Positions 11,080 through 56,825 of a stretch of 64,000 nucleotides of DNA are shown here, piece by piece. The notes under the pieces are model-generated. The model had not been told where the DNA came from, did no database searches, and saw only the letters and a list, made by a program, of their open reading frames with translations. The DNA is taken from the NCBI GenBank assembly GCA_035477895.1, contig DATIKE010000155.1, positions 5,045 through 69,044 on the forward strand, in the 5' to 3' direction. This stretch comes from Phycisphaerae bacterium (GTDB lineage: Bacteria; Planctomycetota; Phycisphaerae; UBA1845; PWPN01). How positions within the stretch are numbered: position 1 is the stretch's first letter; each line of letters begins with the position of its first letter. The position numbers and the translations under genes were made by a program.

Positions 11080-11124
11080 GGCGGCCACTCTCACAGCGGG
11101 TGCGGCCGCCGCTGGAGAGTTAGC

Positions 11125-11862: not shown

Positions 11863-12253
11863 GCCGCAAGGCCGGCGGCCGCGATGTGCACGGCCGGCCG
11901 TTGCCCGGATGGGAAGAACGAAGGGATCGGAAATCCTCCGGGAAACGGTCTTGCCGGACCGAGATACTTATATCGGCCCTTCCGGTGCGGTGGGCTCAAC
12001 AGGCAAAAGAGAAACGCTGGAAGACTCCCGGCCCCCTGCCCGGCCGAAGAAGTCAAACGGCGCATCTTGACGGTACGGCCGACTTGTGCTTAATGTAATT
12101 CCATTGTCCGAACAGCACTTAGGGCGGTTTCGCCCTTGGCGTGGCGGCCGATCGCCGAAGTGGCGTGGTTCGAGGCGTCGGCGGCTGCCACGCAAAACAT
12201 GAAACGGCATGACGAACTCTAGATGCGATGCTACGTCGCAGGAGGCGGACGTG

Positions 12254-13150
12254 ATGTCCACGATCGCACAGCGGATCGCGAGGCCCGGGATCCTGATGCT
12301 CGGCATGATGCTGGCTGCGGGTCTTACCGGCGGATGCAAAACGGATGAGCTGGCCAACCCCAAGCGGGAGCGCGCCGAGGGGCCGACGACCAGCCTCGAG
12401 AACCCCCCGCAAATCCGGGTGCCCGATATTCCGATCGCCGACCGCACCGAGGTCGACCTGGTCGAGGAGATGATGCTGCACCGGACGATGTACGCCCGGT
12501 ACCTCCGGGCACTGGTGCAGTTCTACTCCGAGCACGGCAACAACGAGAAGGCCACGTGGGCCCGCACCGAGCTGAGCGACCTGACCCTTCACGTGAAGCC
12601 CTATTCTTACGTGCCCGATGCCGAACTGCCCGCGGCCAAGATCGGCCCGACAACCTCCATCGCCGAGGCCGACAAGCTCTATAACGACGGCATGGCCCTC
12701 ATGAAAAAGGGCGGCCACGGCTTCCCGGCCCTCTTCAACCAGGAAACCATGAAGCAGGCCCTGGCCAAGCTGAAGGAGCTGGTCAACAGGTTTCCAAGCA
12801 GCGACAAGACCGACGACGCCTGCTTCTTCATCGGGGAGATTCACAAGGAATACTTCGAGGAGAAAGACAACACGATCGCCGTCGAGTGGTACAAGCGGGC
12901 GCTGGACCTGAACCCCAGGACGCCGCACCCGGTCCGTTTCCAGACCGCGGTGATTTACGATTACCGCCTGCACGAGCGGGAAGAGGCCCTCAGGTGGTAT
13001 AATCGCGTGCTGACCGAGGAGCCGGACATGGAGAAGAGCAACACCGAGTTCGCCAAGCTCCGGATTCGGCAGCTCACCACGGAGGAAACGCGGAACGCCC
13101 CGGCCGAGATTCCACCGGAGCCCGGCAGGGTTGCCCCGCAACCCAAGTGA
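12254..13150 (+). CDS. TPR-repeat lipoprotein
   Basis: Start MSTIAQRIARPGILMLGMMLAAGLTGGC (lipobox LTGGC) with AGGAGG upstream. TPR-like helices are present (WYKRALDLNP, ALRWYNRVLTEEP). Confidence 0.7.
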   Translation: MSTIAQRIARPGILMLGMMLAAGLTGGCKTDELANPKRERAEGPTTSLENPPQIRVPDIPIADRTEVDLVEEMMLHRTMYARYLRALVQFYSEHGNNEKATWARTELSDLTLHVKPYSYVPDAELPAAKIGPTTSIAEADKLYNDGMALMKKGGHGFPALFNQETMKQALAKLKELVNRFPSSDKTDDACFFIGEIHKEYFEEKDNTIAVEWYKRALDLNPRTPHPVRFQTAVIYDYRLHEREEALRWYNRVLTEEPDMEKSNTEFAKLRIRQLTTEETRNAPAEIPPEPGRVAPQPK

Positions 13151-13198
13151 GCCGTTTCCGCCCCGGCCGATGTTCTTCGGCTGAAATAACGATTCAAG

Positions 13199-13237
13199 CC
13201 GCCGCGATGGGATCACCCGTCGCGGCGGTTCTGCTTT
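13199..13237 (+). terminator. Intrinsic terminator after the TPR lipoprotein gene
   Basis: 9-bp GC stem ccgccgcga / tcgcggcgg (13199-13207 / 13220-13228) followed by ttctgcttt. Confidence 0.55.
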
Positions 13238-13333
13238 GACGACTTTTCCTCGCCAACGGCAGACTGTACTATCTATCTGGCCCGTAGCCCGACGCGGAGG
13301 GCGGCACGACAAGAACCCCGGAAGGAGGATTTC

Positions 13334-14179
13334 ATGAAATTGGCCACCTGCAACGAGCCCTGGCGGGAGACACCGGTCGAGGAAGTGTTCCCGATCGCGG
13401 CTGAACTGGGTTTTGACGGCGTCGAGATCGCCCCGTTCACGATCGCCGAGAACGCGGCCGACATCCCACCCGACCGCCGGCGGCGGATCGTCAAGGCCGC
13501 GGCCGACGCCGGCGTCGAGATCGTCGGGCTGCACTGGCTGTTCATCTCGCCCAAGGGACTGCACCTGACCACGCCGGACGCGGCCGTCCGCCGACAGGCG
13601 GCCGACTACCTGAAACACCTGGCCGACTTCTGCGGCGACCTCGGCGGGAAGGTCATGATCTTCGGCTCGCCCAAACAGCGTCATATCGAGCCGCCGACCA
13701 CCTATGCCGACGCCTGGGCCCGGGCCGGGGAGGTGTTCAGCGCCGCGGCCGACACCCTGGCCGCCCGGGGGGTGACGCTCTGCATCGAGGCCCTGGCCCC
13801 GGCGGAGACGAACTTCATCCAGACGCTCGACGAGTCCACGAAGCTGGCCGACGAGATCGGCCATCCGAACATCGACGTCATGATCGACTGCAAGGCGATG
13901 TCGTCCATGCCCGACGGCGTGGTCGGCACGATCCGCCGATTCGGAAAACGGGCGAAACACTTTCACGCCAACGAAGCGGGCGGCAAGGGCGTGGGCATGC
14001 CGATCGGGCCCGGCGAACCTCCGGCCATCGACTTTGCCGCCGTTATGAAGGCATTGGTCGAGACCGGCTACGACCGCTGGGTCTCGGTTGAACCGTTCGA
14101 CTACAAGCCGGACCCGACCACGGTGGCGAGAACAGCGATCGAGACACTCAAGAGCGCTCTGGCCTCCGCGAAGGCTTGA
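13334..14179 (+). CDS. Sugar phosphate isomerase/epimerase (xylose isomerase-like TIM barrel)
   Basis: 281 aa. MKLATCNEPW..., GFDGVEIAP and IEALAPAETNFI give the typical AP-endonuclease-2/TIM-barrel pattern. Confidence 0.8.
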   Translation: MKLATCNEPWRETPVEEVFPIAAELGFDGVEIAPFTIAENAADIPPDRRRRIVKAAADAGVEIVGLHWLFISPKGLHLTTPDAAVRRQAADYLKHLADFCGDLGGKVMIFGSPKQRHIEPPTTYADAWARAGEVFSAAADTLAARGVTLCIEALAPAETNFIQTLDESTKLADEIGHPNIDVMIDCKAMSSMPDGVVGTIRRFGKRAKHFHANEAGGKGVGMPIGPGEPPAIDFAAVMKALVETGYDRWVSVEPFDYKPDPTTVARTAIETLKSALASAKA

Positions 14180-14195
14180 TGATCAGGAGTAGAAC

Positions 14196-15440
14196 GTGCG
14201 TACGAATCGGTTTCATCTGACAATCGCTTGCGGCATCCTGGCAACCGCGATATCGACATCGTTGACCCGCGGCGCGGACACCCAGTGCAGCCATGCTCCT
14301 GTCGCCGGGCCGGTCTGCCTGAAGCCGCCCAAGGCGGTCGAGCCGCTCAAGGAATATCGCCTGGACTCGACGCAAGGGCCCTTCATGGCCCAGACCGATG
14401 CCGACGGCAGGCTCTGGGCGTGGGGACGGGTTTTGATGAAGGACGGCAAGGCTTACTTTGCCCCGGCACCCTCGCCGATGGACTGCCCCGACGCCGGCGT
14501 GAAGGTGACGCAGGTCAAGGATGGGCTGATCGAAATCAAAATCGACGGCAAACTTTTTACCGAGTTCCGCTGGGGCGACGACGAGCCCAAGCCGTTCCTG
14601 TGGCCGGTCATCGGACCAACCGGCGAGCCGGTCACCCGGGCGTATCCGATGAAGGACCTCGAGGCCGAGCGCAAGGACCACATCCACCACCGCTCGATCT
14701 GGACCGCGTGGGGCGACATCCGCACCACCAACCTGAAGGAGCCGGGTTCCAATTACTGGCTCCAGACCAAGGACCCCAGGAAGCAGGATCGCCAGATCGT
14801 GCGGAAGATCGTCCGGACCGTCAGCGGGCCGGTGTTCGGCCAGATCGTCGCCGAGATCGACTGGGTGCACCACTCGGGCAGGCGGGACTTCTCCGAGGTC
14901 CGCACCTACACGTTCCATCGCGGCGACGAGAGCAACCGGATGATCGACGTCCGAAATGTGTTCAAGTTCGACGACGGCGAGGTGATGTTCGCGGACACCA
15001 AGGAGGCGGGCATCCTGTCGATCCGGATCGCGACCAGCATGGACGAAATCACGCTCGACAAGAAGCCGGGGCCGGGCGTCATGCGGAACTCGGTCGGCGG
15101 CAAGGGGTCCGGCGAGTGCTGGGGCCGGCCGGCGGCGTGGTGCGATTACGTCGGCCCGGTCGAAGGGCAAACTATCGGCATCGCGGTGTTCGACAACCCG
15201 AAAAATCCGGGCCACCCGCCGCGATGGCACATTCGTGATTACGGCCTGTTCACGGTGAACCCCTACGGCATCAAGGACTTCCCCGACGGCAAGGGCAAGG
15301 ACGGCTCGCACCTGTTCAAGAAGGGTGAGAAGACGCAATTCGACTACCGGATCGTGATTCACAAGGGCGACACCGACACCGCGAAGGTGGCCGACCAGTA
15401 CAAGCTCTACAGGGACACCCCGACCGCCGCGGTTCCATGA
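14196..15440 (+). CDS. Secreted PmoA-family (DUF6807-like) protein
   Basis: Signal peptide, then LWPVIGPTGEPVTRAYP...DHIHHRSIWTAWGDI...NYW..., recalled as typical of the PmoA/DUF6807 family. GTG start has AGGAG upstream. Confidence 0.65.
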   Translation: MRTNRFHLTIACGILATAISTSLTRGADTQCSHAPVAGPVCLKPPKAVEPLKEYRLDSTQGPFMAQTDADGRLWAWGRVLMKDGKAYFAPAPSPMDCPDAGVKVTQVKDGLIEIKIDGKLFTEFRWGDDEPKPFLWPVIGPTGEPVTRAYPMKDLEAERKDHIHHRSIWTAWGDIRTTNLKEPGSNYWLQTKDPRKQDRQIVRKIVRTVSGPVFGQIVAEIDWVHHSGRRDFSEVRTYTFHRGDESNRMIDVRNVFKFDDGEVMFADTKEAGILSIRIATSMDEITLDKKPGPGVMRNSVGGKGSGECWGRPAAWCDYVGPVEGQTIGIAVFDNPKNPGHPPRWHIRDYGLFTVNPYGIKDFPDGKGKDGSHLFKKGEKTQFDYRIVIHKGDTDTAKVADQYKLYRDTPTAAVP

Positions 15441-15462
15441 CCGTGGAGCAAGGGCGCCAGGC

Positions 15463-16086
15463 ATGTCAGGCAACGAACGACAGCAGGCGTTCGACCGGTT
15501 GTGTCGCGAGGCCGCCCGCTGCCGGCGCTGCCCGCGAATGTCCCGGCGCAAGGCGGTGCTCGGGCCGCTCAACGGGACGTTGAGGCCGAAGGTGCTGTTC
15601 ATCGGCGAGGCTCCCGGCCGACAAGGCGCCGAGATCACCCGTAAGCCTTTCTGCGGTGATGTGTCAGGCCGGAAGTTCGAGATGCTTTTGGCCTCGGCCG
15701 GCCTGTCCCGGGACGATGCTTTCATCACCAACGCCGCCCTGTGCTGCCCGGCCGACGACCGCCGCAACAACACGCCGACGGCCGCCGAGGTCCGCAACTG
15801 CCGGCCCTTCCTGCAACGACTGATCGACCTGCTGGAGCCGCCGGTCGTCGCCACCGTCGGGGCCGTCGCCTTGAAAGCGATCGAGCCCCTGACCGGTTCG
15901 GCGCGAGAAGGGATTCTCGCACCAGCGAGCCGGGGCCTGAAACTCGCCGAGGTGGCGGGCACCGTCATCCGCGGTGCTCGATTTCTGCTGGTGCCGCTGT
16001 ACCACACCAGTCCGCGCGTGCTCAACACGACCCGGAGTTTCGCACAGCAGCAGGCGGACTTTCTGAAACTCCGCGAAGCGATCTGA
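15463..16086 (+). CDS. Uracil-DNA glycosylase family protein (family 4/5-like)
   Basis: CRRCPRM...VLFIGEAPGRQGA...ITNAALCCP...PLYHTSPR are UDG-superfamily motifs. Confidence 0.85.
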   Translation: MSGNERQQAFDRLCREAARCRRCPRMSRRKAVLGPLNGTLRPKVLFIGEAPGRQGAEITRKPFCGDVSGRKFEMLLASAGLSRDDAFITNAALCCPADDRRNNTPTAAEVRNCRPFLQRLIDLLEPPVVATVGAVALKAIEPLTGSAREGILAPASRGLKLAEVAGTVIRGARFLLVPLYHTSPRVLNTTRSFAQQQADFLKLREAI

Positions 16087-16332
16087 TGCCTGATTCAAGG
16101 GCGAGGCGGGCCGAGCCCGCCCTACGGGTCTCTTCGCGGCCTGGCCTGTCGCCGGCGCTCCAGGTTCTGATCACCCGCGCAGACCCAGCCGCATAAACAG
16201 TGACGGATCCCCCAGGGCTTCACCGGTCCCCTGCATTATTGATGGCCCCGGAGAGCGCGGCTATGATGCGGTACTTCGCGGCTTTCGGGGGACGCGCGAG
16301 CCGCAGGAAAACGTCAAACGAAAGGACAGCAC

Positions 16333-17649
16333 ATGCCTGAGCGAAAGAATCTCAGTCGTCGAGCATTCATGAAGGGCGCGGCGGCGGCCGTGGCGGCACC
16401 GTACTTCGTTCCCGCTTCCGCCTTGGGCAAAAGCGGCTGGCTGCCGCCGAGCGAGCGGATCACGGTCGGGTTCATCGGCATCGGCAACATGGGCGGCGGC
16501 CACCTTCGCGGATTTATCGATGACAAGCAACTCCAGGTGGTGGCCGTCTGCGATGTCGACGCCGTCAAGCGCAAGAAGTCCAAGGACAGCGTCGAGGAAA
16601 AGTACGCGACCGACCGACAGGCGGGCACCTTCAAGGGCTGCGACGAATACAACGAGTTCGAGCGGTTGCTGGAGCGCAAGGACATCAACGCGGTGCTGAT
16701 CGCCACGCCGGATCACTGGCATGCGATCATCGCCATTGCCGCGGCCCGCGCGGGCAAGGACATCTACTGCGAAAAGCCGTTGACGCTGACCATCCGCGAG
16801 GCCCAGGCGATGGAGGAGGCGGTCCGTCGGTATGGCCGGGTGTTCCAGACCGGCAGCCAGCAGAGAAGCGACAAGAACTTCCGCCAGGCCTGCGAGCTGG
16901 TCCGCAGCGGGCGCATCGGCAAGCTGCTCAAGGTCAACGTCGGCGTGGGCGGCCCGTCGTCCGAGGCATACCTGCCCGAGCAGCCGGTCCGCGAGGGCCT
17001 GGACTGGGATCGTTGGCTCGGCCCGGCTCCCTGGCAGCCCTACAACGAAGATCGTGGCAGCGGCAGCTACAGCGGGGGGTGGCGGCACATCCGCGATTAC
17101 TCCGGCGGCATGATGACCGACTGGGGCGCCCACCACTTCGACATCGCCCAGTGGGGTCTGGGCATGGACGGCAGCGGACCCGTCGAAGTGATCCCGCCGA
17201 AAACCCCGCCCGCCATCCGACAGACGCCCGATCCCGAGAAAGGCGAGGGCCTCGTATACAAGTACGCCAACGGCGTGCCGGTCTATCACGGCGGAGCGAA
17301 CGGCGTCCTGTTCACCGGCACCGACGGCAAGGTCGAGGTTAACCGCGGCTACTTCCGCACCTGGCCCGACGAGATCGGCCGGGAGCCGCTGGGAGCCAAC
17401 GACGTGCGTCTGTACGAGAGCCCCGGCCACCGGCAGGACTGGATCAACTGCATCCGCACGAGGCAGCGGCCTATCTGCGACGTGGAGATCGGAGCCAGCA
17501 CGATCACCGTCTGCCACCTGGGCAACATCGCGTACTGGCTCGGGCGGCCCATCAAGTGGGACCCGGCCAGACAGGAAATCATCGGCGACGAAGAGGCGAG
17601 CCGCTGGCTGGATCGGCCCAGGCGGGCACCGTGGCACCTTTACCTGTAA
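16333..17649 (+). CDS. Tat-signal Gfo/Idh/MocA family oxidoreductase
   Basis: SRRAFMKGAAAAVAAP twin-arginine signal. GFIGIGNMGGGH Rossmann motif. EKPLTLTIREA motif. Confidence 0.9.
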   Translation: MPERKNLSRRAFMKGAAAAVAAPYFVPASALGKSGWLPPSERITVGFIGIGNMGGGHLRGFIDDKQLQVVAVCDVDAVKRKKSKDSVEEKYATDRQAGTFKGCDEYNEFERLLERKDINAVLIATPDHWHAIIAIAAARAGKDIYCEKPLTLTIREAQAMEEAVRRYGRVFQTGSQQRSDKNFRQACELVRSGRIGKLLKVNVGVGGPSSEAYLPEQPVREGLDWDRWLGPAPWQPYNEDRGSGSYSGGWRHIRDYSGGMMTDWGAHHFDIAQWGLGMDGSGPVEVIPPKTPPAIRQTPDPEKGEGLVYKYANGVPVYHGGANGVLFTGTDGKVEVNRGYFRTWPDEIGREPLGANDVRLYESPGHRQDWINCIRTRQRPICDVEIGASTITVCHLGNIAYWLGRPIKWDPARQEIIGDEEASRWLDRPRRAPWHLYL

Positions 17650-26450: not shown

Positions 26451-26636
26451 TTGGCCGACTACCTCGCGGAAAAAGTGAAGGGGCAGGACAGTCAACAGGA
26501 CAAGACGAAGCGCGAGTTCCTGGCCGAGTGGGTCAAAGCTGTGAATTCCCATGGTGGGTTCGGACGATGGGCCTGGGATGTATCACTCACTCCAAAAATG
26601 ATCAATGACATTCTTTCGCGGCACGCCGGTCCCTGA
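26451..26636 (+). pseudogene. Orphan C-terminal tail resembling type III restriction/helicase (Res) proteins
   Basis: KREFLAEWVKAVNSHGGFGRWAWDV resembles the conserved W..AVN..G.fGrW tail that I recall from Res-subunit-like helicases. No helicase core is present. Confidence 0.4.
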
Positions 26637-27942
26637 GACGAGGAATCTCAGGCTCCTGCCTGATTACCTCGTCCCGGCGATAATCGAAACCTGCGGTTCC
26701 CAAAGGCCAGGTTGCCCATACCATCGTCGCCAGCGCAAGCCAGCAGTGCAGTCCGGCCAGCCGCAGCACGGTCAGGCCCAGCAGCGGAATCGCCAGCAGC
26801 CACAGGGCGAACAGAACCTCGCTCCAGCCGACTCGATGCTTCTCCCGGCGTCGCCGCCAGACGTCGGCGGACAACACCGCCATCGCGGGCAGCAGCAGCA
26901 CGAAATAGTGCGTCCAGTAGATCGGCACGAACGCCACAACACCCGCCAGCCACGCGCCGTATGACCGGAAGTCGCCGGCAGGAGTCGCACCCTTGCGGCG
27001 AGCCCAGGTCGCGATCAACAGAAATCCGAGAACCGCGCCGGCGGACAGGTAGTACAGGCCGCGGGACTGACCGATGGTGAGTCGAAGCAAATGAACAGGC
27101 CGATCTTTTCTACCCGTCGATCCCGGGTCCGTCGTCAGCCGGCGCACCACCGCGGCCAGACTCTGGTTGTTGTGGCGGTGAAACTGGTTCCGCTGTTGCC
27201 AGAACAGCAGGTGGCCGAGCCGATCCCCGCCCGCCAGTTCCTCGGGTGTCTGGTACTTCCGCCCGCGGACCTCGGCCAGCCACAGCCGATGGGCGGCCTT
27301 GCTGCCTTCCCAGCCGAAACCCGCCGCACTCAGCCCGCCGGTCAGCAACACAAACGCGATGGCCGCCGACGCGAACGCCCGCCATCGGCCGCGAGCAAGC
27401 CAGAAAAGCACCAGAAGCAGCGGATAGATCTTGATGACACCGGCCAGCGCGATCAATGCACCGGCCGTCATGTCACGCCGGCTTTCCCAGCATCGGCTGA
27501 ACGCCAGCACACCCAGGCAGAGCACCGGCAGGTTCACCTGCCCCAGTCCCAGCGTGCTGTGCAGGTAGGGCAGTACCAGCACGATCGGCCAGACCCGGCG
27601 GACAGAGAACGGCAGCGGATCGCGATCGCTCCGGGCAAGCACCCGCCCGCATTCGCGGACGGTCACCAGCAGCAGCGCGATGTTCAGCACCGTCCACAGC
27701 GGCGCGACGAGCTTCAGCGGCCAGGCCACCAGCGGGGCGACCAGAATCACGAAGGCTGGCAGGTAGTGGCGAACCCCTTCTCCCTGTGTGAACTCGCCGG
27801 TTTGCCACCAGTGCAGACCGGTCCGATGAAAGTCGATCAGATCGGAATCGTCGATGTGCACCCGATATGAGGCCCAGGCGACGTAGAAGGCCGCCAGTCC
27901 CAGCCCGACGCAGACCCAGACTGTGTGCCCGCGTCGATGCAT
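26602..27942 (-). CDS. Polytopic membrane glycosyltransferase-like protein (GT87/DUF2029-like)
   Basis: Roughly 10 or more predicted TM helices throughout. The likely start is MHRRGHTVWVCVGLGLAAF at 27942, preceded by GAAGGGCGGG. The family assignment is tentative. Confidence 0.5.
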   Translation of the reverse strand: MHRRGHTVWVCVGLGLAAFYVAWASYRVHIDDSDLIDFHRTGLHWWQTGEFTQGEGVRHYLPAFVILVAPLVAWPLKLVAPLWTVLNIALLLVTVRECGRVLARSDRDPLPFSVRRVWPIVLVLPYLHSTLGLGQVNLPVLCLGVLAFSRCWESRRDMTAGALIALAGVIKIYPLLLVLFWLARGRWRAFASAAIAFVLLTGGLSAAGFGWEGSKAAHRLWLAEVRGRKYQTPEELAGGDRLGHLLFWQQRNQFHRHNNQSLAAVVRRLTTDPGSTGRKDRPVHLLRLTIGQSRGLYYLSAGAVLGFLLIATWARRKGATPAGDFRSYGAWLAGVVAFVPIYWTHYFVLLLPAMAVLSADVWRRRREKHRVGWSEVLFALWLLAIPLLGLTVLRLAGLHCWLALATMVWATWPLGTAGFDYRRDEVIRQEPEIPRLRDRRAAKECH

Positions 27943-27953
27943 GGTCCCGCCCT

Positions 27954-29048
27954 TCACGCGGCGCCTTTGGTCGCCGCGGCGGCTTGTCGCCACTGACCCA
28001 TGGCCAGCCGACGCAGCCAGACGTTCCTGCTATACACGTACCGGGTCAGCAGGATCGGGCCGATCAGCCCGATCGCCACGCCTGACGCCAGCAGCACCGG
28101 CCGCCACGCATCCGCCATCCACGGCAACACCGCCACCAGCCCGTGCCGGACAACGATCCGAGTCGCCGCCTGCATCACCCCGCCGTTGAGGTAGATCTCG
28201 TACGAATAGTCCGCCAGGCACTTGACAACACCCGCGACTTGCCCACCGACGACCGCAAGCTGAATCGCCAGCGTCCAACTGACCGCGATTCCCGCGAGAG
28301 CGTAAATCACTCCCAGAAACCACATTTTCGGCAGGTGCTCCCAGGCCGGCAGCAGGGCGGAAAAATAGATCAGGCCGCCGGCCAGAATGATATGCCGACC
28401 GCGAAGCAGCCGCTGCTGGATGGCATCCCCCCGCTGCCCGGCCATGAACCCGAGAAAGAAATACACCGCGTAGCGAGTGACAAAACTCCACCCCAGAAGC
28501 GAGTTCAGAGGCGTGCCCACCGAGAAGTAGCTGGCCGCAGCCAGGAGTAATAGCACAAACAACGCCGTCGTCGGCCTGCGGTAGTCCGGCCTCAGCACCA
28601 CACTGACACACAGGAAGAGCATCTGGACCAGAAACAGCGAGTAGATGAACCACAGCAGCAGCAGCGGGTTCTGCTGCGGATAAAGCAGGATATCGGTCAG
28701 CAGCCGACCCCAGTTCAGCGGCCGATACACCATCGACGACGGAACACCCACCTTCAGGAGGATGCCCAGCAGACTGTAGAAGAAGTAAACCAGCAGCAAT
28801 CTCTTGAGCTGGTTGACGACGATCCGGCCGGCACTCCCGCGGCTCACGAAGAAGAACTTGCTCCCGAAAAAACCGGAGAGAAAAAAGAACGTGTGCATGT
28901 GAAAGGCGTGGATGACGCTGTTGACGGTTTCCAATCGCGACCCGGAGTTGTCGTAGGCCGGTGTGATCGCGTGCCCCAGGATGACGAGCACGATGACGAT
29001 GCCGCGAAGCAGGTGCAGAGACGGATTGAAGCCGGCGTTGTCGGGCAT
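27954..29048 (-). CDS. Acyltransferase family 3 membrane protein
   Basis: The N-terminus LHLLRGIVIVLVILGHAI plus about 10 TM helices is the typical acyltransferase_3 pattern. Confidence 0.8.
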   Translation of the reverse strand: MPDNAGFNPSLHLLRGIVIVLVILGHAITPAYDNSGSRLETVNSVIHAFHMHTFFFLSGFFGSKFFFVSRGSAGRIVVNQLKRLLLVYFFYSLLGILLKVGVPSSMVYRPLNWGRLLTDILLYPQQNPLLLLWFIYSLFLVQMLFLCVSVVLRPDYRRPTTALFVLLLLAAASYFSVGTPLNSLLGWSFVTRYAVYFFLGFMAGQRGDAIQQRLLRGRHIILAGGLIYFSALLPAWEHLPKMWFLGVIYALAGIAVSWTLAIQLAVVGGQVAGVVKCLADYSYEIYLNGGVMQAATRIVVRHGLVAVLPWMADAWRPVLLASGVAIGLIGPILLTRYVYSRNVWLRRLAMGQWRQAAAATKGAA

Positions 29049-29312
29049 GGTCGCTACTTCGAGTGCAAAGATGAACTCCAGACCATTCGATCCGTGTCAG
29101 GCGCGAGTGGATCTTACCGCTTGTCGGGCATCGTAGATACGGGTGAGGGGCTGGCGACCTTCCAGAGATCGCCATCAACCTTGACGTCGACAGCCTGGGC
29201 GGGACGCGGCCGGTCAATGCCCGAGAGCGTAAGTCCATAGGCTCGGACCTCAGTGGAATCGCAACCAAGGCAACCGGTCCCCGCTCTCCACGTCGGACGA
29301 TTGGCGCCAATC

Positions 29313-30236
29313 TTACAGATCGCCGTTCTCCCGTGCCCAGGCGATGCCCTTGGGGATGCCGGCGGTCAGGGTGGTCCGGGGCTCGTAGCCCAGCAGTTGG
29401 CGGGCCTTGGAGATGTCGGCCACGTAGCGGGTCACTTCGCCGGGGCGGGCCGGTTCGTACCGGGCATTCGGCGTCTTGCCCAGAGCCAGGGCGATGATGT
29501 TCACCGCGTCGACCAGCGTGCGGCCCTCGCCGGCGGCCAGGTTGATCGTCTGGTTGGCCACCTTCCCCGACACCAGCTTGTCGATCCCCAGCGTGATGCC
29601 CGCCACGCAGTCGTCCACGTAAGTGAAATCGAGAACCTTTTCCTTCCCGAACACGACGATCGGTTCACCCTTCTCGATCTTGAACGTGAACAGCGGCAGC
29701 ACACGCTCCAGGCGCTGGATGTCGTTGTCGTAGCGGCCATAGACGTTACTGAAGCGGAACACCAGGTACGGCAGGCCGTAGCACTCGGCATACGAGTAGA
29801 TGAACGCCTCGCCGGCGATCTTGCTGGCCGAGTACGGGCTTTCGGCCACGACGAAGTCCGCCGCCGACTCCTCGGTCACGTGCCGATGAATATCGCCATA
29901 CACCTCGCGCGAGCTGCCGAAGATGAACGGGATGCGGTGCAGCCGGGCATACTCCAGGGCCGCGAAGCACATGGTGATGTTCTCGAGCGCCCGCGAGGGA
30001 TTCTCCACCAGCTCGAAAACCTTGGCGTGGGCCGCCAGGTGGATCACGATATCGAAAGGTCCCGCGGGCAGATCGGCCGGCTTGGCCGTGCGAAGGTCCA
30101 GCAGTTGCGTGTCGACCTTGTCCGTCCAGGTGTTCGCCCGATTGTCGATGCCCACCACCTGGTCGCCCCGGGCCAGCAGGCCCAACCCCAGGTTTGTCCC
30201 GATCTGTCCGCTCGAACCGGTAATCAGCACTCTCAT
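29313..30236 (-). CDS. NAD-dependent epimerase/dehydratase
   Basis: Internal start MRVLITGSSGQIGTNLG (GxxGxxG) with GGAAGGTG upstream. YSASK catalytic motif. The upstream 52 codons of the track ORF are rejected. Confidence 0.88.
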   Translation of the reverse strand: MRVLITGSSGQIGTNLGLGLLARGDQVVGIDNRANTWTDKVDTQLLDLRTAKPADLPAGPFDIVIHLAAHAKVFELVENPSRALENITMCFAALEYARLHRIPFIFGSSREVYGDIHRHVTEESAADFVVAESPYSASKIAGEAFIYSYAECYGLPYLVFRFSNVYGRYDNDIQRLERVLPLFTFKIEKGEPIVVFGKEKVLDFTYVDDCVAGITLGIDKLVSGKVANQTINLAAGEGRTLVDAVNIIALALGKTPNARYEPARPGEVTRYVADISKARQLLGYEPRTTLTAGIPKGIAWARENGDL

Positions 30237-30395
30237 GTCTTCGTCACCTTCCGGAACCGGATTGTCATGCCGCCGGGCGGTTTGAGCCCGGCCTGCGGCC
30301 GGGGCCGACCCCGGCGTTAAGGGGCAAAGTATAACGTGCTTTTCGCTGACCGACCACACCGCAGGGCGGCTGCCTTCACCGGTCTCGTGCAACGG

Positions 30396-31964
30396 CTATC
30401 GTAATGAACGGAACTTCGCCCAACCGATCCCAAGCTTACGCATCCGGCCGCGAAGGGTATATGGGTTGATGCCCAGTAGTTCGGCGGTGCCGTTGCGGCC
30501 CTCGATACGGCCGTTGCTTTTCGCCAAGGCGAGCTCGATGTGTCGTCGCATGGCGGCGTCGAGCGTCGGGAACGGGGACGCGGATGTCGCGGAGAGTTGG
30601 TGACCAATACCCGCGTGGGACCGAACGTTGGGCGAGGCAGGCGCTTCCGTCGCGCCGAGGGCCTTGGCGATTTCGAGTCGCTGGCCGTTCCCGAGGATCA
30701 CGGCGCGATCCATGACCGCGCCGAGCTCGCGCACGTTGCCCGGCCACGGGTAAGAGATCAACAAGTGCAGGTCATCGGTAGTCGGCGCAATCGGCGTCAG
30801 CCCGAATCGCCGGGCTGACTTCAATGCAAAGTGCGACGCCATTTCGGGAATGTCTTCCGGACGATCGCGAAGGGCCGGAAGGTAGATCGGGAAAACGGCA
30901 ATCCGATACCACAGGTCCTCGCGGAACCGGCCCTCGGCGACCATCGCCTGAAGATTTCGGTGTGTCGCGGCGACGATGCGAACATTCACGTGTAGCTGCC
31001 GCTGTCCTCCGACACGCTCGAATGTTCCATCCTGAAGGATGCGAAGCAGACGGACCTGGGCGGCCACCGGAAGTTCGCCGATTTCGTCGAGGAAGAGTGT
31101 TCCGCTGTCGGCGCGCTCGAACCATCCCTTACGCAGGTTGGTCGCACCGGTGAAGCTCCCTTTCTCGTGCCCGAAGAGTTCGGAGTCCATCAGGTCCGGC
31201 GGAATCGCGCCGCAGTTCACGCGAAGAAACGGCCCAGCCGCCCTGGGCGATCGCGCATGGAGGGCCCGGGCGACAACTTCCTTGCCCGAACCGGTTTCGC
31301 CGAAGAGCAGGACGGGGGCGTCGGACGGCGCTACCAATTCGACGCGCTCCATAACCTGACGCAGGCCGTTGTCCGCTCCGACGATCACGTCGGTGATGTC
31401 CTGCCGTCCGAGGCGCGTCAGAAGCGACCGTTTGTCCGCCTCGGCGGCCTCACGTAGCGTGGCGATTTCTCGAAGGCGGGCGTCGTTCAGCATCGCCACC
31501 GACAGTGGTTCGAGGAGTTTTCCGAACAGCGATTCGAGTGTCGCATCGAATCGCTGGCCGCGCCGAGCGGTGAAAACCAAGATGCCGATCGGCGTTTCTT
31601 CATCCGAGAGGGGGCCGATCATCAGGTCGCCGCGCAATTGCCCGGGCAATCCTGATCGCAATGGGGCAGTGACCTTCGCTGCCGGGGACCGCAGGATTGC
31701 GTTTCGCCGACACCATGCGAGCAGGTCGGTCATCAACTCGGGTTTGCACTCCGTCCGAGGCGGCCAGTCAGCAGGTTGCCCACACGCTGCGTGAGCGACA
31801 GTCTCGATGGCGGAGCGGTGCAGATCGAACTGGCGAATCAGAAGGTCCTGGATGGGCAGAGCGGACGCAAGCAAGCCGGCGATCCGGTCCGCCGCTTCCT
31901 GAATCTCGATGTGGCGGCACACCTTGCGCCAAACATCCAGCACCATCGGTCCCAAACGATCCAT
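30396..31964 (-). CDS. Sigma-54-dependent transcriptional activator, GAF-AAA+-HTH (NifA/FhlA-like architecture)
   Basis: Start MDRLGPMVLDVWRKV with GAAAGGTG upstream. N-terminal GAF-like domain. AAA+ Walker A GETGSGKE. GAFTGA-type loop EKGSFTGA. Walker B LFLDEIGEL. C-terminal Fis-type HTH (TAELLGINPYTLRGRMRKLGI). Confidence 0.9.
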   Translation of the reverse strand: MDRLGPMVLDVWRKVCRHIEIQEAADRIAGLLASALPIQDLLIRQFDLHRSAIETVAHAACGQPADWPPRTECKPELMTDLLAWCRRNAILRSPAAKVTAPLRSGLPGQLRGDLMIGPLSDEETPIGILVFTARRGQRFDATLESLFGKLLEPLSVAMLNDARLREIATLREAAEADKRSLLTRLGRQDITDVIVGADNGLRQVMERVELVAPSDAPVLLFGETGSGKEVVARALHARSPRAAGPFLRVNCGAIPPDLMDSELFGHEKGSFTGATNLRKGWFERADSGTLFLDEIGELPVAAQVRLLRILQDGTFERVGGQRQLHVNVRIVAATHRNLQAMVAEGRFREDLWYRIAVFPIYLPALRDRPEDIPEMASHFALKSARRFGLTPIAPTTDDLHLLISYPWPGNVRELGAVMDRAVILGNGQRLEIAKALGATEAPASPNVRSHAGIGHQLSATSASPFPTLDAAMRRHIELALAKSNGRIEGRNGTAELLGINPYTLRGRMRKLGIGWAKFRSLR

Positions 31965-32028
31965 ACGAAGGACACCTTTCGGTCGTATATGACGGACTGC
32001 TGTCTTTTGTGACAGACAAAACCATGAT

Positions 32029-32046
32029 ATCCGACGGCTGTCGGAT
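32029..32046. promoter_or_regulatory. Inverted repeat, candidate enhancer (UAS) for the adjacent activator
   Basis: ATCCGAC-ggct-GTCGGAT (7-bp arms) lies about 70-80 bp upstream of the candidate -24/-12 element. Confidence 0.3.
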
Positions 32047-32110
32047 GTCAAGGGCGACAAGAACGCCGATTTCAGGCTCCGAGCGGCGTTTCGCGGGTTT
32101 GCTCGACGTG

Positions 32111-32126
32111 CGGCACGCCGGGTGCT
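32111..32126 (+). promoter_or_regulatory. Candidate sigma-54 (-24/-12) promoter
   Basis: cGGCACGccgggTGCTc has GG (32112-13) and GC (32124-25) separated by exactly 10 nt. It matches TGGCACG-N4-TTGCW at most positions and points toward the 32247/32458 genes, divergent from the sigma-54 activator. Confidence 0.5.
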
Positions 32127-32246
32127 CTTGGATGGACGACGGTGCTCTGCCAGCCGCATGTCGCGGCGGGGTTGCGGACCGAGAGGAGCCAGTAGCGCCG
32201 GGGGCTCAGCCTGCAGCCGCCTACATGGCTCGGAGCGGGTCGACCC

Positions 32247-32393
32247 ATGTGGATGCTCGTGATTGTCGTCAGCTCCTTTTACGCCGGTTTCCTGATGGCG
32301 TCGCTCTTCGCCATAGGAAAGGCCGCGAGTGCAGCCGGGAGTGAGGCGGGTCGGCCGAATGACGGGCGCAAACCAAGCACCGATGGAGCTTGA
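32247..32393 (+). CDS. Possible 48-aa single-TM leader peptide/small membrane protein
   Basis: Too short for the ORF track. ATG...TGA translates to MWMLVIVVSSFYAGFLMASLFAIGKAASAAGSEAGRPNDGRKPSTDGA. GGAGCGGG lies upstream. It sits between the candidate sigma-54 promoter and the ABC ATPase gene. Confidence 0.3.
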   Translation: MWMLVIVVSSFYAGFLMASLFAIGKAASAAGSEAGRPNDGRKPSTDGA

Positions 32394-32457
32394 TGGACGG
32401 TAGTTACGGATTCCGCATGAAGCCGGTGATGTGTGTTGAGCGTGCAGGGGCGACGAC

Positions 32458-33243
32458 ATGATCGACCAGATCATATTGATGGGCGGGAAGGGAAAGGATG
32501 GAACGCCTGAGGCGGTCACCGAGGTTGTGTTCAAAATGGGTGACGTTGTCAGCGTTGTAGGCCCGACGGGGTCAGGCAAAACGACGCTCATCAACGATAT
32601 TGAGTTGTTTGCGGATGGTTCAACACCCACTGGGCGCCGAGTGCTGATTGACGGAGTCGCGCCGGGACGGGAGTACCGCGACGATCCCGCCCATCATCCG
32701 ATCGCGCTTATCACCCAGCACACGAATTTTCTCTCGGACTTGCCGGTTCCGGAGTTCCTCTCGATTCACGCGGAGATTCGGAACTCGAACGGGGCGTCAA
32801 CGGATGAGACGGTAGCACGCACAATGGCATTTGCGAACTCGTTGACCGGCGAAGCCATCCTGCCGGCGTACCGCATGACCGAGTTGTCCGGAGGGCAGAC
32901 GCGGGCGCTATTGATCGCCGATGCAGTGGTCATCGGCAATGCGCCGATCGTGTTGCTCGACGAGATCGAGAACGCTGGCATTCATCGCATGCGGGCGCTC
33001 GAACTGCTACGCCGATTCCAGAAGATTTTCGTCTTCGTTACGCACGATCCCTACATCGCGCTGCTCTCCGACTTTCGCATTGTCATAGCCAACGGAGCGA
33101 TGAGGGCCGTCATTCGCAGCGGGGAACCCGAACACCTTCTCGCCGGTAGAGTCCGCCGAGCCGACGATCTGCTCTCCTACTTCCGAGACAGAATTCGTTC
33201 CGGCGGCCTGCTCACGCCCGAGGATGTAGAGGTGCTGGCATGA
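32458..33243 (+). CDS. Stand-alone ABC-type ATPase (no cognate permease in the locus)
   Basis: Walker A GPTGSGKTT, signature LSGGQ, Walker B VLLDEIE, H-loop VTHD. Confidence 0.85.
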   Translation: MIDQIILMGGKGKDGTPEAVTEVVFKMGDVVSVVGPTGSGKTTLINDIELFADGSTPTGRRVLIDGVAPGREYRDDPAHHPIALITQHTNFLSDLPVPEFLSIHAEIRNSNGASTDETVARTMAFANSLTGEAILPAYRMTELSGGQTRALLIADAVVIGNAPIVLLDEIENAGIHRMRALELLRRFQKIFVFVTHDPYIALLSDFRIVIANGAMRAVIRSGEPEHLLAGRVRRADDLLSYFRDRIRSGGLLTPEDVEVLA

Positions 33244-33941
33244 GACTGGCGATTTGCGCGGGGCCCGCGACAACGGGCAAAACCTCAGTGTTGCGGCACG
33301 TAATCCGCAAGCTGCTGGCGGTGGGGCAGCAGGTCGCTTTCCTCAAGATCGATGTGCAGTTCGCGGAGGAGGATGAAGAGTTGGCTCGCGAACTCGGCAT
33401 CCCGACAAAGAAGGTCTATTCCGGCGAACTGTGCCCTGATCATTGTAGTGTCATGGTATTGGGCGATGCCCTGCAATGGGCGCAGAGTCTGGGCTGCGAC
33501 GTGCTTCTGGTCGAAACGGCGGGGCTGTGTTTGCGCTGCTCCCCCTACGTTGACGGAGGGCTGGGCATCGTAGTGCTGGAAGCGACCAGCGGGATGAATC
33601 TCCCGCGCAAGATCGGGCCGATGCTCAGCCTCGCGGACATCGCCGTGGTGACGAAGATCGATCTGGTCTCGCAGGCCGAGCGGGAAGTCTTCCGCGCCCG
33701 CATCCTCGACGCCGCTCCGGGCGTTCGCGTCCGCGAAGTAAACGCCCTGCACGGAATCGGCATTGATCCGCTCGTCGAACGGATCGGCGTGACCGAGCAC
33801 GTTAACGGCGAATTGCTGCTGCGCGGCAACCCGCCCGTGGGAACATGCACGATCTGCGTCGGCAAGAAAACGATCGGCTGGCAATCGCATTTCGGCGTGG
33901 TGCGGCCACTCGAGAATCAGACGTTCTACCGAGGTGAATGA
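33240..33941 (+). CDS. G3E-family (HypB/UreG/CobW-like) P-loop GTPase with CxxC motifs
   Basis: ATGA overlap with the upstream gene. P-loop GPATTGKTS. Walker B plus metal motif LLVETAGLCLRC. TKID (NKxD-like). C-terminal GTCTIC. Confidence 0.75.
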   Translation: MRLAICAGPATTGKTSVLRHVIRKLLAVGQQVAFLKIDVQFAEEDEELARELGIPTKKVYSGELCPDHCSVMVLGDALQWAQSLGCDVLLVETAGLCLRCSPYVDGGLGIVVLEATSGMNLPRKIGPMLSLADIAVVTKIDLVSQAEREVFRARILDAAPGVRVREVNALHGIGIDPLVERIGVTEHVNGELLLRGNPPVGTCTICVGKKTIGWQSHFGVVRPLENQTFYRGE

Positions 33942-35140
33942 GCATGCCGGGTACGGCGCGCATCTACTTCGACAACGCGGCAACGACGCCACTGGACCCG
34001 CGCGTGCGAGCGGCCATGCAACCGTATCTCGATAGCGCGTTCGGGAACCCGTCGAGTCTGCACTGCGAAGGGCGCGCCGCAAAAGAGGCCGTGGAGGAGG
34101 CGCGGGGCTATACCGCCGCACTCGTCGGAGCGAAACCGAGCGAAGTTGTCTTCACAAGCGGCGGCACTGAAGCGGATAGCCTCGCCATCCGGGGCGTCGT
34201 CCGGGCATACAGGGGTCGGTCCGTCCATGTGATTACCAGCGCCATCGAACACCCGGCCGTTCGCGAGGCGTGCCGCGACCTTGCCATCGATGGTATCGGG
34301 GGCACGTTGCTCAGGGTAAGTGCGAATGGCATTGTCGATCCGGACGAACTCTCCCGAACGATCCGCCCAGATACACGGCTCATCTCCATTATGGCGGCCA
34401 ACAACGTCGTCGGCACGTTGCAACCGGTGCAGGAGTTCGCCCGCATAGCTCGCGACCACGGCGTGCTGTTTCACACCGACGCGGTCCAGGCCGCCGGCAA
34501 GGTGCCGTTGGACGTTCATCGCGACGGTATCGACCTGTTATCCGTCTCCGGGCACAAGCTGCATGGGCCTAAGGGGGCTGGCGCACTCGTCGTCCGCGAC
34601 GGCGTACCACTGGCCCCCTTGATCCTCGGAGGCGGACAGGAAGCCGGGCGGCGCCCGGGTACGGAGAACGTAGCCGCGATCGTCGGCTTGGGAGAAGCGG
34701 CGCGGATCTACGGCGAGTTGGGTAGCGAGGAGAACGCGCGCCTGGTACGGCTCCGCGAGCGACTAATCGAGGGTGCGCTTGCACGGGGCCCCGATGCCTA
34801 CCTCATCGGCGACCGCCACCGCCGCCTTCCGGGGCACGTCTGCCTGGGGTTCGCTGGCCTGGAGGGCGAGGCGATCAAGCTATTGCTGGCGCTGGATGAA
34901 TTGGGGGTGTCGGTTTCGTCCGGTAGCGCGTGCGGCGCAAACCATGCGGGCGAACCTTCCCATGTGTTGACGGCCATGGGGTTCGACTCCCTTCGCGCCC
35001 GCGGCGCGGTGCGCATCACACTGGGTCGGTTCAATACGGAGGATGAAGTGGACCACTTTCTCCGGGTGTTGCCGGGTGTCGTTGGCCGGTTAAACCCCAT
35101 CACGCGGCGGGCGCGCGCAGAAGCGGGAGCCTGCGCATGA
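33938..35140 (+). CDS. Cysteine desulfurase (NifS/IscS class V aminotransferase)
   Basis: ATGA overlap. PLP lysine motif SGHKLHGPKG. Active-site loop SSGSACG. Typical N-terminus IYFDNAATTPLDPRV. Confidence 0.92.
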   Translation: MSMPGTARIYFDNAATTPLDPRVRAAMQPYLDSAFGNPSSLHCEGRAAKEAVEEARGYTAALVGAKPSEVVFTSGGTEADSLAIRGVVRAYRGRSVHVITSAIEHPAVREACRDLAIDGIGGTLLRVSANGIVDPDELSRTIRPDTRLISIMAANNVVGTLQPVQEFARIARDHGVLFHTDAVQAAGKVPLDVHRDGIDLLSVSGHKLHGPKGAGALVVRDGVPLAPLILGGGQEAGRRPGTENVAAIVGLGEAARIYGELGSEENARLVRLRERLIEGALARGPDAYLIGDRHRRLPGHVCLGFAGLEGEAIKLLLALDELGVSVSSGSACGANHAGEPSHVLTAMGFDSLRARGAVRITLGRFNTEDEVDHFLRVLPGVVGRLNPITRRARAEAGACA

Positions 35141-35886
35141 CCGAAAACAGAGCGACGTTGCCGGGGCTGGATTGCGGTCTGTGCGGATTTCGCCGGTGCG
35201 AGGAATTCATGGAACAGCTGGCGCAGAAGCCGGAACTGCTTGATCGTTGCATTCATCTTCGCGGGCTGGAACCGGTCGCGGGAACCATCGGCGCTGACGC
35301 TGAACCGGGGACCGCGGTGATGGCCCCCCAAGGCGCGATGGCAGTGGCGCCCGGCGATGGCGGCACAAGGATCCTCAGGAAGCCGGCGACAGTTTCGCTG
35401 CCGACCTACCAGGAATCCAACTGGCGGGACAGCCTGGGCCGGGAATTCGATTTCTATCTCGAGCATTTCCCCGAGGAACCGGGACCGCGCGAGGCCATTC
35501 TCCCGCACAATCCCATGATCGCTCGGGAGATGAGCGTCCAGCCGGGTGACATTCTCATCGGCCGCCCGCTGGGCATGTCGTGCGGGTGCCCGATTACCCA
35601 TTGCGGCGTCGTGATGGACGTTGATCCACGAATCGGGTTGATCAACTGGTGCGTAACCGGTCCCCTGCGAGCGCGCCAGACAGGGTACAAAGATCTCGGG
35701 TATTACGTCGCCGAAGCCTACGAAGGGCTGATCCGACAGGCGCGCGGCGAGATACGGATCGGTATGCGTTATTTCTTCCAACCGCGGATGTGTATGCTCC
35801 AATGGCGGCACAGCGGGCTGGTGAACTATCTGAATCGGACAAAGGATGGACTGCAGGTGCGAGTCGAGGGACTGTGGATCGGTTAG
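35137..35886 (+). CDS. Cys-rich (Fe-S)-binding protein: N-terminal Cx2Cx4Cx16C (RnfB-type FeS domain) plus an uncharacterised C-terminal domain
   Basis: ATGA overlap. LPGLDCGLCGFRRCEEFMEQLAQKPELLDRC has exactly Cx2Cx4Cx16C spacing. The C-terminal domain carries GMSCGCPITHCGVV, INWCVTGP and RMCMLQW. Confidence 0.75.
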   Translation: MTENRATLPGLDCGLCGFRRCEEFMEQLAQKPELLDRCIHLRGLEPVAGTIGADAEPGTAVMAPQGAMAVAPGDGGTRILRKPATVSLPTYQESNWRDSLGREFDFYLEHFPEEPGPREAILPHNPMIAREMSVQPGDILIGRPLGMSCGCPITHCGVVMDVDPRIGLINWCVTGPLRARQTGYKDLGYYVAEAYEGLIRQARGEIRIGMRYFFQPRMCMLQWRHSGLVNYLNRTKDGLQVRVEGLWIG

Positions 35887-36004: not shown

Positions 36005-36604
36005 GAAAGGAAATGATCCGGCCAGGTCGATGCGGTCTCGGATGAATTTCACGAGGATTGAGGTTTTTGCGGCAACCGCGAGAAACTCCGCAAGGGTATT
36101 CCGCAAAGCGATGGCCACTACCTGTTCGGAGGGGGCCGGTTCGGGTCGAATGGTCCGGCTCCACGAGCCGAATGACTGCCAGACCCGTTGGGGATTTCTG
36201 GCGGAGAGTATCTGCAGCAGGCCCTGGGCGATGAGCCCGAGTGGGATGTGGCGGTGATAGGCGGCGATCTTTCGGCGGACGGCGTCGCGGTAAGCATCGC
36301 ACTTGTGGTGGAGGTACTGGTTGCCGCTGATGCGCCGTATCGGCATCATGGCCGCCATCCAGAAGTGATGGGCATAGGCCCCGACGACGCACAGGGCCTG
36401 CCTGAAGGACACTTCGATCTTGAACCGCAGTCCGTAGATTCGGATGATCTCCAGGAGGCCCAGATTCAGGTCGGCGCTCACCAGCGGGATGGTGCCGCGA
36501 CGGGGATGGTCCACAGCCACGAAGCGAACGAGGGCCCCGACGGGGCGCCGCAGAAGGTCGGCCGTCCTGAACCGGATGGTCACCTCTTCATCGTCGTAGA
36601 CCGG
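36005..36604 (-). pseudogene. C-terminal fragment of an IS4-superfamily DDE transposase
   Basis: ...LLEIIRIYGLRFKIEVSFRQA... contains the Y(2)R(3)E signature of IS4-type transposases. The N-terminal catalytic half is absent and replaced upstream by a REP element. The rest of track ORF 35642-36904 is read-through. Confidence 0.6.
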
Positions 36605-54548: not shown

Positions 54549-54614
54549 CTCTGCGCCTCCATCACCAACGAGGCGCACATTCTACCGCACCGGTACGACG
54601 ATCGTCATCGGGTC

Positions 54615-55787: not shown

Positions 55788-55803
55788 GACTCTCAATCCC
55801 CTT

Positions 55804-56757: not shown

Positions 56758-56825
56758 GACTTGCTCCTGATAGCCCCGGCCATCATCCGGGGGGGGGCGT
56801 CAACGGAGAGCCCCGGCCCATGAAA

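Follow-up and report, generated by a model that had tools for sequence, protein, structure and literature searches.

What does a soluble ATPase of the ATP-binding cassette (ABC) type do in an operon with a GTPase, a cysteine desulfurase and a cysteine-rich Fe–S protein? The question is raised by a locus in a 64,000-nucleotide stretch of DNA from a Phycisphaerae bacterium (contig DATIKE010000155.1, positions 5,045 to 69,044), hereafter the window. The four genes lie on the plus strand, and a gene for a sigma-54 enhancer-binding protein diverges from them. An earlier interpretation made from the DNA alone, hereafter the sequence-only reading, took them for an uncharacterized, co-produced metallocluster or sulfur-trafficking set and not for a transporter. 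Our comparison across genomes supports that view, and none of the contrary observations that were looked for turned up. It also reduces the set to a conserved core of three genes, best read as part of a sulfur-assimilation and cysteine regulon. The operon, as defined by its open reading frames (ORFs) and by Pfam and NCBIfam matches, is composed as follows.

32458-33243, plus strand: soluble ABC-type ATPase, 261 aa, ATG start
33240-33941, plus strand: G3E-class P-loop GTPase, 233 aa, ATG start
33938-35140, plus strand: group I (NifS/IscS-like) cysteine desulfurase, predicted, 400 aa, ATG start
35137-35886, plus strand: FeSX, two-domain cysteine-rich Fe–S protein, 249 aa, ATG start, PF04060 at residues 8-39

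All three junctions are 4-nt ATGA overlaps of stop and start codons, and the ORF coordinates thus bear out the chain described in the sequence-only reading.

A three-gene core conserved in bacteria and archaea

FeSX has 2,227 relatives in the database, counted as protein clusters and typically 60–70% identical across phyla. Scanning one genome for each GTDB species identified at least 287 carriers, nearly all uncultured, including Planctomycetota, Chloroflexota, Omnitrophota, Bdellovibrionota, Acidobacteriota, Verrucomicrobiota, Desulfobacterota, Elusimicrobiota and Armatimonadota, among others. The order ABC–G3E–(NifS)–FeSX spans at least 10 phyla. In 64 of the 65 species loci with enough flanking sequence, the ABC and GTPase genes stand directly upstream of FeSX in the same order, which answers the concern that the genes might not co-occur outside this genome. 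Of these 65 loci, 42 have NifS between the GTPase and FeSX.

The triad without NifS is present in an ANME-1 (anaerobic methanotrophic archaea) metagenome-assembled genome, in Methanospirillum lacunae, in Methanogenium organophilum and in one further contig (L087, L090, L094 and L095). Archaeal FeSX relatives are more distant, with 28–48% identity overall and about 43% to the FeSX of the window in the triad loci. NifS is optional in bacteria and absent from these archaeal loci. The ABC–G3E–FeSX triad is the conserved core of the module, to which particular lineages have added NifS and the sigma-54 activator. The four-gene unit originally proposed does co-occur widely, but its conserved part comprises three genes. 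Naive clustering of ORFs in GC-rich loci also yielded antisense shadow ORFs (clusters 4 and 5), which were disregarded.

A divergent form of the triad, with FeSX about 28% identical, lies between a two-component system and an F-type ATP synthase operon in bacterial genomes of about 6 Mb (L088/L089, positions 7483-9669).

FeSX combines a predicted [4Fe–4S] domain with a domain of no known family

FeSX had been described as an N-terminal Cx2Cx4Cx16C FeS domain fused to an unrecognized domain with a CGCPITHC motif, and both parts of this description are confirmed. The N-terminal motif is C13-x2-C16-x4-C21-x16-C38, and residues 8–39 match the FeS domain PF04060 with 36.2 bits (Pfam cutoff 23). The four cysteines are invariant or nearly so among homologs. 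The family profile matches the [4Fe–4S] domain of the corrinoid iron–sulfur protein (CFeSP) and of RnfB in the PDB, with E-values from 3.9e-7 (4djd_C) to 2.7e-3, and these matches are limited to query positions 5–54. The N-terminal part of FeSX thus matches, and is predicted to be, a [4Fe–4S] domain.

The likeness to the CFeSP large subunit and RnfB comprises the four-cysteine PF04060 motif and the attachment of this domain through a flexible linker. Beyond this domain, FeSX and these proteins are unrelated, as it has neither a TIM-barrel or corrinoid-binding domain nor ferredoxin repeats, and the score against the rnfB model TIGR01944 is 16 bits (cutoff 68.7). The remaining ~210 residues outside the FeS domain match no family. 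A variable, low-confidence linker leads to a C-terminal domain of ~155 aa, which is all-beta in an AlphaFold model with a predicted local distance difference test score (pLDDT) of 82 overall and above 90 in the domain. This model was built from a 46-sequence alignment including distant relatives; an earlier 28-sequence alignment of low diversity gave a pLDDT of 53 and was discarded.

No Pfam (2025) or NCBIfam (2026) family covers the C-terminal domain, even with distant members included. A Foldseek comparison of the model with the PDB and BFVD likewise returned no structural relative (best E-values 0.054 and 0.005, respectively; TM-score below 0.25). The sequence-only reading had proposed profile and structure searches of this protein, and their outcome is a domain without a relative in any of these four collections. 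Nevertheless, the domain is strongly constrained. R118, C151, P152, H155, G175, G197, F214, P216, C219 and H225 are invariant throughout the superfamily, R143 is nearly so, and C149, C156 and C172 are additionally conserved in the bacterial clade. In many FeSX homologs, the variable linker contains an additional CxxC, which the FeSX of the window does not have.

One IMG name in the archaeal FeSX clade is "Predicted Fe-S protein", which is the name of COG2000, and FeSX is putatively a COG2000-type protein.

Two nucleotide-binding proteins accompany FeSX

The first gene encodes a protein with an ABC_tran domain (PF00005, 51 bits, Pfam cutoff 25). The motifs GPTGSGKT, LSGGQ and LLDE are read in its translation, and it has the features of an ABC nucleotide-binding domain, namely Walker A, LSGGQ, Walker B and H-loop. 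It contains no cysteine and is 60% identical to its ANME-1 orthologue. The protein scores below every NCBIfam cutoff, the best matches being transporter models with 36–46 bits. No permease or binding protein partner was found in the window, as had been noted. The resemblance to SufC suggested by the sequence-only reading is an analogy only; SufC is not among the best 25 of the 132 NCBIfam matches, which are those listed, and neither SufB nor SufD accompanies the protein.

The second gene product contains a cobW domain (PF02492) with 47.1 bits (Pfam cutoff 20.7). The sequence-only reading recognized a G3E-type GTPase with a CxxC after Walker B and a second one near the C-terminus. The domain match agrees with this, as do the motifs GPATTGKT, ETAGLCLRC, TKID and CTIC, and we observe a further motif, CPDH, which that reading lacked. 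Among 44 sequences, Walker A, C65-P-D-H68, ETAGLC96xRC99, TKID and C203xxC206 are invariant. The CPDH motif is at the position of the metal-binding site in UreG and HypB. The GTPase is 70–89% identical among bacterial orthologues across phyla and 64% identical to the ANME-1 orthologue. Its scores fall below the cutoffs for HypB (47.7 versus 121.2 bits) and UreG (30.7 versus 204.2 bits), and no hydrogenase or urease genes were found in the module neighborhoods. A link to selenium was dropped, its sole hint being that a CobW-related selenoprotein model matches weakly (18.7 bits).

An optional cysteine desulfurase

The third gene product matches Aminotran_5 (PF00266) with 260 bits and retains the motifs SGHK and SSGSAC, confirming the pyridoxal phosphate (PLP)-binding lysine and active-site cysteine of the NifS/IscS desulfurase recognized earlier. 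Its NCBIfam scores are 452.6 bits for NifS (TIGR03402, cutoff 530.75), 363 bits for IscS (cutoff 548) and 136 bits for SufS. By these scores it is a predicted group I cysteine desulfurase with no assigned equivalog.

In two library proteins (P0173 and P0255), a C-terminal Aminotran_5 desulfurase part is joined to an FeS domain. These may be true NifS–FeSX fusions, or they may reflect gene-calling read-through at the overlapping stop and start codons.

Genomic context points to sulfur assimilation

An Rrf2 regulator is located directly upstream of the module in 30 of 57 loci, often in two copies. The upstream Rrf2 proteins belong to a clade without the three cluster-binding cysteines, as in Bacillus CymR. 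In many Chloroflexota loci (L002, L011, L014, L032, L039, L041, L048, L064 and L066), the module is preceded by a tandem pair of Rrf2 genes that differ in subtype, and some second copies carry one to three cysteines.

Clustering and tblastn identified the recurring neighbors as cysK/CBS-like PLP enzymes (14 loci), cysE (7 loci), cystathionine gamma-lyase or synthase (4 loci) and a metallo-β-lactamase–rhodanese protein (4 loci). The module is also found inside sulfate-transporter operons. The arrangement Sbp-[ABC-G3E-(NifS)-FeSX]-CysT-CysW-CysA occurs in the closest relative, whose FeSX is 77% identical to that of the window (L092/L093, positions 3092-10604 in L092), and in two Thermoguttaceae (L068 and L084), where a sigma-54 activator again lies divergently upstream. 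This place in the operon is roughly that of cysM in E. coli cysPUWAM.

In methanogens, the triads are followed by genes for HcyBio (COG1900), a 424-aa PALP protein and a thiamine pyrophosphate (TPP) enzyme, an arrangement matching the one given in PMC12068725 for ComF/MMP16, cysteate synthase and ComDE. In Methanogenium, the triad stands directly before the 424-aa PALP gene and the TPP-enzyme gene, and no COG1900 gene is present there. By family and order, we read these two genes as encoding a putative cysteate synthase, which uses sulfite, and a putative sulfopyruvate decarboxylase. The ANME-1 triad has IscS–IscU, NadA and Thi4 within 6 kb.

The window itself contains a sulfate-assimilation and cysteine cluster (54615-62105), 19 kb from the module and made up of gene types seen beside it in other genomes. 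Its genes, and the one immediately downstream of the cysteine genes, are the following.

61278-62105, minus strand: PAPS/APS (phosphoadenylyl or adenylyl sulfate) reductase, CysH
59403-61244, minus strand: ferredoxin-type sulfite reductase
57437-59011, minus strand: siroheme-synthase-like TP_methylase/HemD fusion
56879-57343, minus strand: three-cysteine Rrf2 regulator
55816-56760, minus strand: CysK
54615-55763, minus strand: cystathionine gamma-lyase or synthase
54132-54578, minus strand: UPF0047 family protein, downstream of the cysteine genes

The sequence-only reading saw no client enzyme in the window. This stands for hydrogenase, urease and the like: no genes for hydrogenase, carbon monoxide dehydrogenase (CODH), urease or nitrogenase recur in the ~90 neighborhoods, and none for SufB, SufD, IscU or an A-type carrier. 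The context is not client-less, however, as genes of sulfur assimilation, cysteine and coenzyme M metabolism accompany the module across genomes. The best reading of these neighborhoods is that the module belongs to a sulfur-assimilation and cysteine regulon.

In one Phycisphaerales locus (L001, positions 11045-17223), the module is followed by a 240-aa protein, a Fer4_11 protein, an NrfD–cytochrome c fusion and a multihaem cytochrome. This downstream set looks like a membrane redox complex of the PsrBC or alternative complex III (ACIII) kind.

Sigma-54 control in Planctomycetota

In the window, the module is preceded by the following regulatory features.

30396-31964, minus strand: sigma-54 enhancer-binding protein, divergent, 522 aa from ATG 31964, with presumed N-terminal sensor domain, Sigma54_activat domain, AAA lid and Fis-type helix–turn–helix (HTH)
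32024-32051, minus strand: candidate sigma-70-like promoter of the activator gene, TTGACA-16-TATCAT, an 11/12 consensus match
32022-32035 and 32040-32053: inverted repeat with 14-nt arms, overlapping the sigma-70-like promoter, a candidate activator binding site by sequence inspection
32111-32126, plus strand: candidate sigma-54 -24/-12 element, cGGCACG-N4-gTGCt, 10/12, pointing at the operon
32127-32457, plus strand: leader, holding a 48-codon ORF at 32247-32393

The most plausible start of the activator is ATG 31964, with a Shine-Dalgarno-like AAAGG upstream, and not a start further upstream. An activator of NifA/FhlA architecture had been proposed. The sigma-54 part of this assignment holds (Sigma54_activat PF00158 with 233 bits, AAA lid and GSFTGA loop), and HTH_8 is slightly below its cutoff (20 versus 22 bits). 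The proposed GAF domain is unsupported, as the N-terminal 189 aa have no match in Pfam, NCBIfam or PDB sequences. The equivalog cutoffs are also missed, with 328 versus 476 bits for NorR and 327 versus 529 bits for NifA.

The -24/-12-like site, 348 nt before the ABC start, had been called a good match facing the operon. The match is present, but alone it is not rarer than chance, with 6 such sites in the window versus 10.5 expected. Stronger sites are found in orthologous loci: 12 of 71, all Planctomycetota, have at least an 11/12 match to TGGCACG-N4-TTGCW located 48–111 nt upstream of the ABC gene, against a background of 0.003 such matches per 300 nt. Moreover, activator orthologues with 52–63% identity adjoin the module in 7 Planctomycetota loci. 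Because of these strong sites and flanking activators, the predicted sigma-54 control of the module is a genuine lineage-specific feature of Planctomycetota, and the exact site at 32111-32126 is a probable operon promoter. As for the sigma-70-like promoter of the activator, one such match is expected by chance in the region.

The 48-codon ORF of the leader, which the sequence-only reading pointed out as a small ORF, is unsupported as a gene, with no homolog in 90 related loci. The leader matches nothing in Rfam, and neither a riboswitch nor another structured RNA was found in it (fold z-score -0.3).

A probably laterally acquired copy and its flanks

The activator and the four operon genes have a third-codon-position GC content (GC3) of 0.71–0.77, compared with 0.84–0.89 for the flanking epimerase, trmD, rplS, cysK and sir genes. 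Downstream of the operon lies a trace of an insertion sequence (IS).

~36395-36589, minus strand: short relic of an IS701/IS4-type transposase, E-value ~1e-5 to 1e-6

The relic had been reported as IS4-type. Only a stretch of ~65 residues matches the C-terminal part of IS701/IS4 models. The compositional island and the relic that follows the operon support lateral acquisition of the module of the window and are consistent with a recent transfer. The idea of an accessory insertion is supported by the same difference in GC3, and rpsP lies downstream of the locus as reported, along with trmD and rplS. No remnants of Sbp or CysTWA were found in the window, where they were sought to test whether the IS element had deleted a sulfate transporter.

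Just upstream of the activator, a cell-envelope gene group on the minus strand (26602-30239) comprises a GT87 glycosyltransferase, a membrane acyltransferase-like ORF and an NAD-dependent epimerase. A ferritin-like ORF is seen by eye at 6049-6537 on the plus strand.

Relation to known systems

The component families are known, and the archaeal triad has been noticed before. The legend of Fig. 2 in a study of methanogens (PMC12068725, PLoS Genet 2025) mentions an "ATPase / Ni2+-binding GTPase / COG2000 Fe-S protein" triad of unknown role beside coenzyme M biosynthesis genes, in a layout with ComF/MMP16, cysteate synthase and ComDE. In our literature search for the gene combination, this figure legend was the only mention found and the sole relevant mention of COG2000. 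We found no description of the function, the NifS-bearing bacterial form, the regulators, the embedding in sulfate operons or the FeSX domain.

The methanogen triad and the window share the same three families in the same order, with identities of 60% for the ABC protein, 64% for the GTPase and ~43% for FeSX. In contrast, the archaeal triads have neither NifS nor the Rrf2 regulator nor sigma-54 control, and their neighbors are ComF/MMP16, cysteate synthase and ComDE, compared with cysK, cysE and the sulfate transporter in bacteria.

The module is reminiscent of SUF in that a soluble ABC-type ATPase is co-encoded, with translational coupling, with a cysteine desulfurase and a cysteine-bearing candidate scaffold. 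It differs from SUF in having no SufB or SufD, a group I desulfurase (452 bits for NifS versus 136 for SufS), an additional G3E GTPase, an ABC protein under all family cutoffs, and a regulator context of cysteine and sulfur instead of iron or oxidative stress. The NIF and ISC systems differ in their NifU/IscU scaffold, which the operon lacks. With the G3E systems (HypB–HypA, UreG–UreEFD, CobW/COG0523 and MeaB), the module shares the P-loop GTPase fold and motifs, a Cys/His metal motif between Walker A and B, and a presumptive co-encoded client. Its GTPase, however, lies below every equivalog cutoff, has added invariant CxRC and CxxC pairs, and is paired with an ABC ATPase, and the presumptive client is a novel Fe–S protein in place of a hydrogenase, urease or B12 enzyme.

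A proposed mechanism and its alternatives

We propose that FeSX carries a metal–sulfur center that would be assembled or handed over by the nucleotide-driven NTPases and would serve sulfur incorporation. We infer this mechanism from the families and their context, and we consider the chances for and against it evenly balanced. NifS would draw persulfide sulfur from cysteine, and archaea and other carriers without NifS would rely on free sulfide. A dimer of the G3E GTPase would deliver a metal ion through its invariant Cys/His motifs, and the metal would join the sulfur at the invariant cysteines and histidines in the C-terminal domain of FeSX. Electrons would come from the N-terminal [4Fe–4S] domain on its flexible tether, while a dimer of the ABC ATPase would drive a conformational cycle of loading and release. 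In bacteria, the resulting center would serve sulfur incorporation by CysK-type PLP enzymes; in methanogens, its users would be cysteate synthase and COG1900 sulfurtransferases.

Two observations weigh against this proposal and the sulfur context on which it draws. Many loci have no sulfur gene within 8 kb, and only 46 of 80 have an Rrf2 regulator, an activator or a cys gene. In addition, a NifS that removes sulfur from cysteine beside genes of cysteine synthesis appears circular, unless the product differs from cysteine.

A more far-reaching version, which we offer as a tentative possibility, would see in the triad an ancient, unrecognized class of nucleotide-driven sulfur or metal–sulfur delivery machine whose fold is new. 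As the physiological sulfur donor that has been missing for incorporation independent of cysteine desulfurases in anaerobes, it would feed COG1900 enzymes (homocysteine and coenzyme M) and CysK-type enzymes, and NifS would have been coupled to it later in bacteria. The physiological sulfur donor of the COG1900 sulfurtransferases is unsettled, as discussed in PMC12068725.

Alternatively, FeSX could be a small redox enzyme of inorganic sulfur metabolism, for example one that makes or converts sulfite, thiosulfate or persulfide for PLP beta-replacement enzymes, with the ABC and G3E proteins as mere maturation factors. The G3E proteins characterized so far load metal into a co-encoded client (reviewed in PMC9164220). 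FeSX would itself suit an enzyme, with its predicted electron-input [4Fe–4S] domain, a Cys2His2 site and two invariant arginines that could hold an anion. The contexts are also compatible with such a role, as the Methanogenium triad directly precedes PALP and TPP-enzyme genes without COG1900, and the bacterial module lies by cysK or within a sulfate-transport operon. Nevertheless, the fold of FeSX matches no known enzyme, and a 155-aa domain with neither siroheme nor molybdenum cofactor is an unlikely catalyst of multi-electron sulfur redox chemistry. The redox-enzyme explanation also leaves the insertion of NifS in two thirds of the bacterial loci unaccounted for, and we regard it as unlikely.

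Less probable still is a general or stress-specific Fe–S biogenesis machine parallel to SUF, ISC, NIF, SMS and MIS, in which FeSX would be the scaffold, the ABC protein the equivalent of SufC, NifS the sulfur donor and the GTPase the iron donor. The composition parallels SufS–SufBC2D, the taxonomic spread is broad and crosses domains, and the proximity of the ANME-1 triad to IscS–IscU, NadA and Thi4 fits such a function. Against it, an IscR-type sensor would be expected to have three cluster-binding cysteines, which the upstream Rrf2 proteins lack. Furthermore, a comparison by hhalign indicates that FeSX is unrelated to IscU (probability 0.2%), SufC does not appear among the listed matches of the ABC protein, and no SufB, SufD, IscU or A-type carrier recurs nearby. 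The recurring neighbors are cysteine and sulfate genes and not Fe–S clients.

The module could also be a regulatory device that senses sulfur or redox state, or it could mature an unrelated metalloenzyme encoded elsewhere (hydrogenase, CODH or a nitrogenase-like enzyme), but this appears very improbable. HypB and UreG are the best named relatives of the GTPase, Fe–S proteins are often sensors, and the operon contains no client; yet the HypB and UreG cutoffs are missed widely, none of the candidate metalloenzymes recurs in the neighborhoods, and two NTPases are an unusual outlay for a sensor.

Finally, we reject the reading of the ABC protein as the ATPase of an ordinary membrane transporter, for sulfate or metal for example, with the other genes as passengers: its best sequence matches are indeed transporter nucleotide-binding domains and the module does lie between Sbp and CysTWA in L092/L093, L068 and L084, but those operons have their own CysA, only 27% identical to the module's ABC protein. 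Adjacent permeases, all sulfate CysT/CysW, are confined to those contigs, that is, to 2 of the 80 species loci (L068 and L084) and to L092/L093 of the closest relative, so homologous clusters are not routinely next to ABC permeases. The 261-aa ABC protein is always followed by the 233-aa GTPase, often with overlapping genes. The 60% identity that it shares with its orthologue in archaea also speaks for a fixed soluble partnership.

Implications for sulfur handling in anaerobes

How sulfur moves into cysteine, homocysteine, coenzyme M and clusters in anaerobes is an open question, especially where a desulfurase is not the source. The module described here is a good candidate for a step in this handling: it is broadly distributed, retains 60–64% identity in its two NTPases between a planctomycete and an ANME archaeon, and has a fixed composition of two NTPases and an Fe–S protein. 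The triad is reported from cultured methanogens for which genetic tools exist. With this module, the clients of G3E metallochaperones would include a new type, and ABC ATPases would have a further role as soluble proteins.

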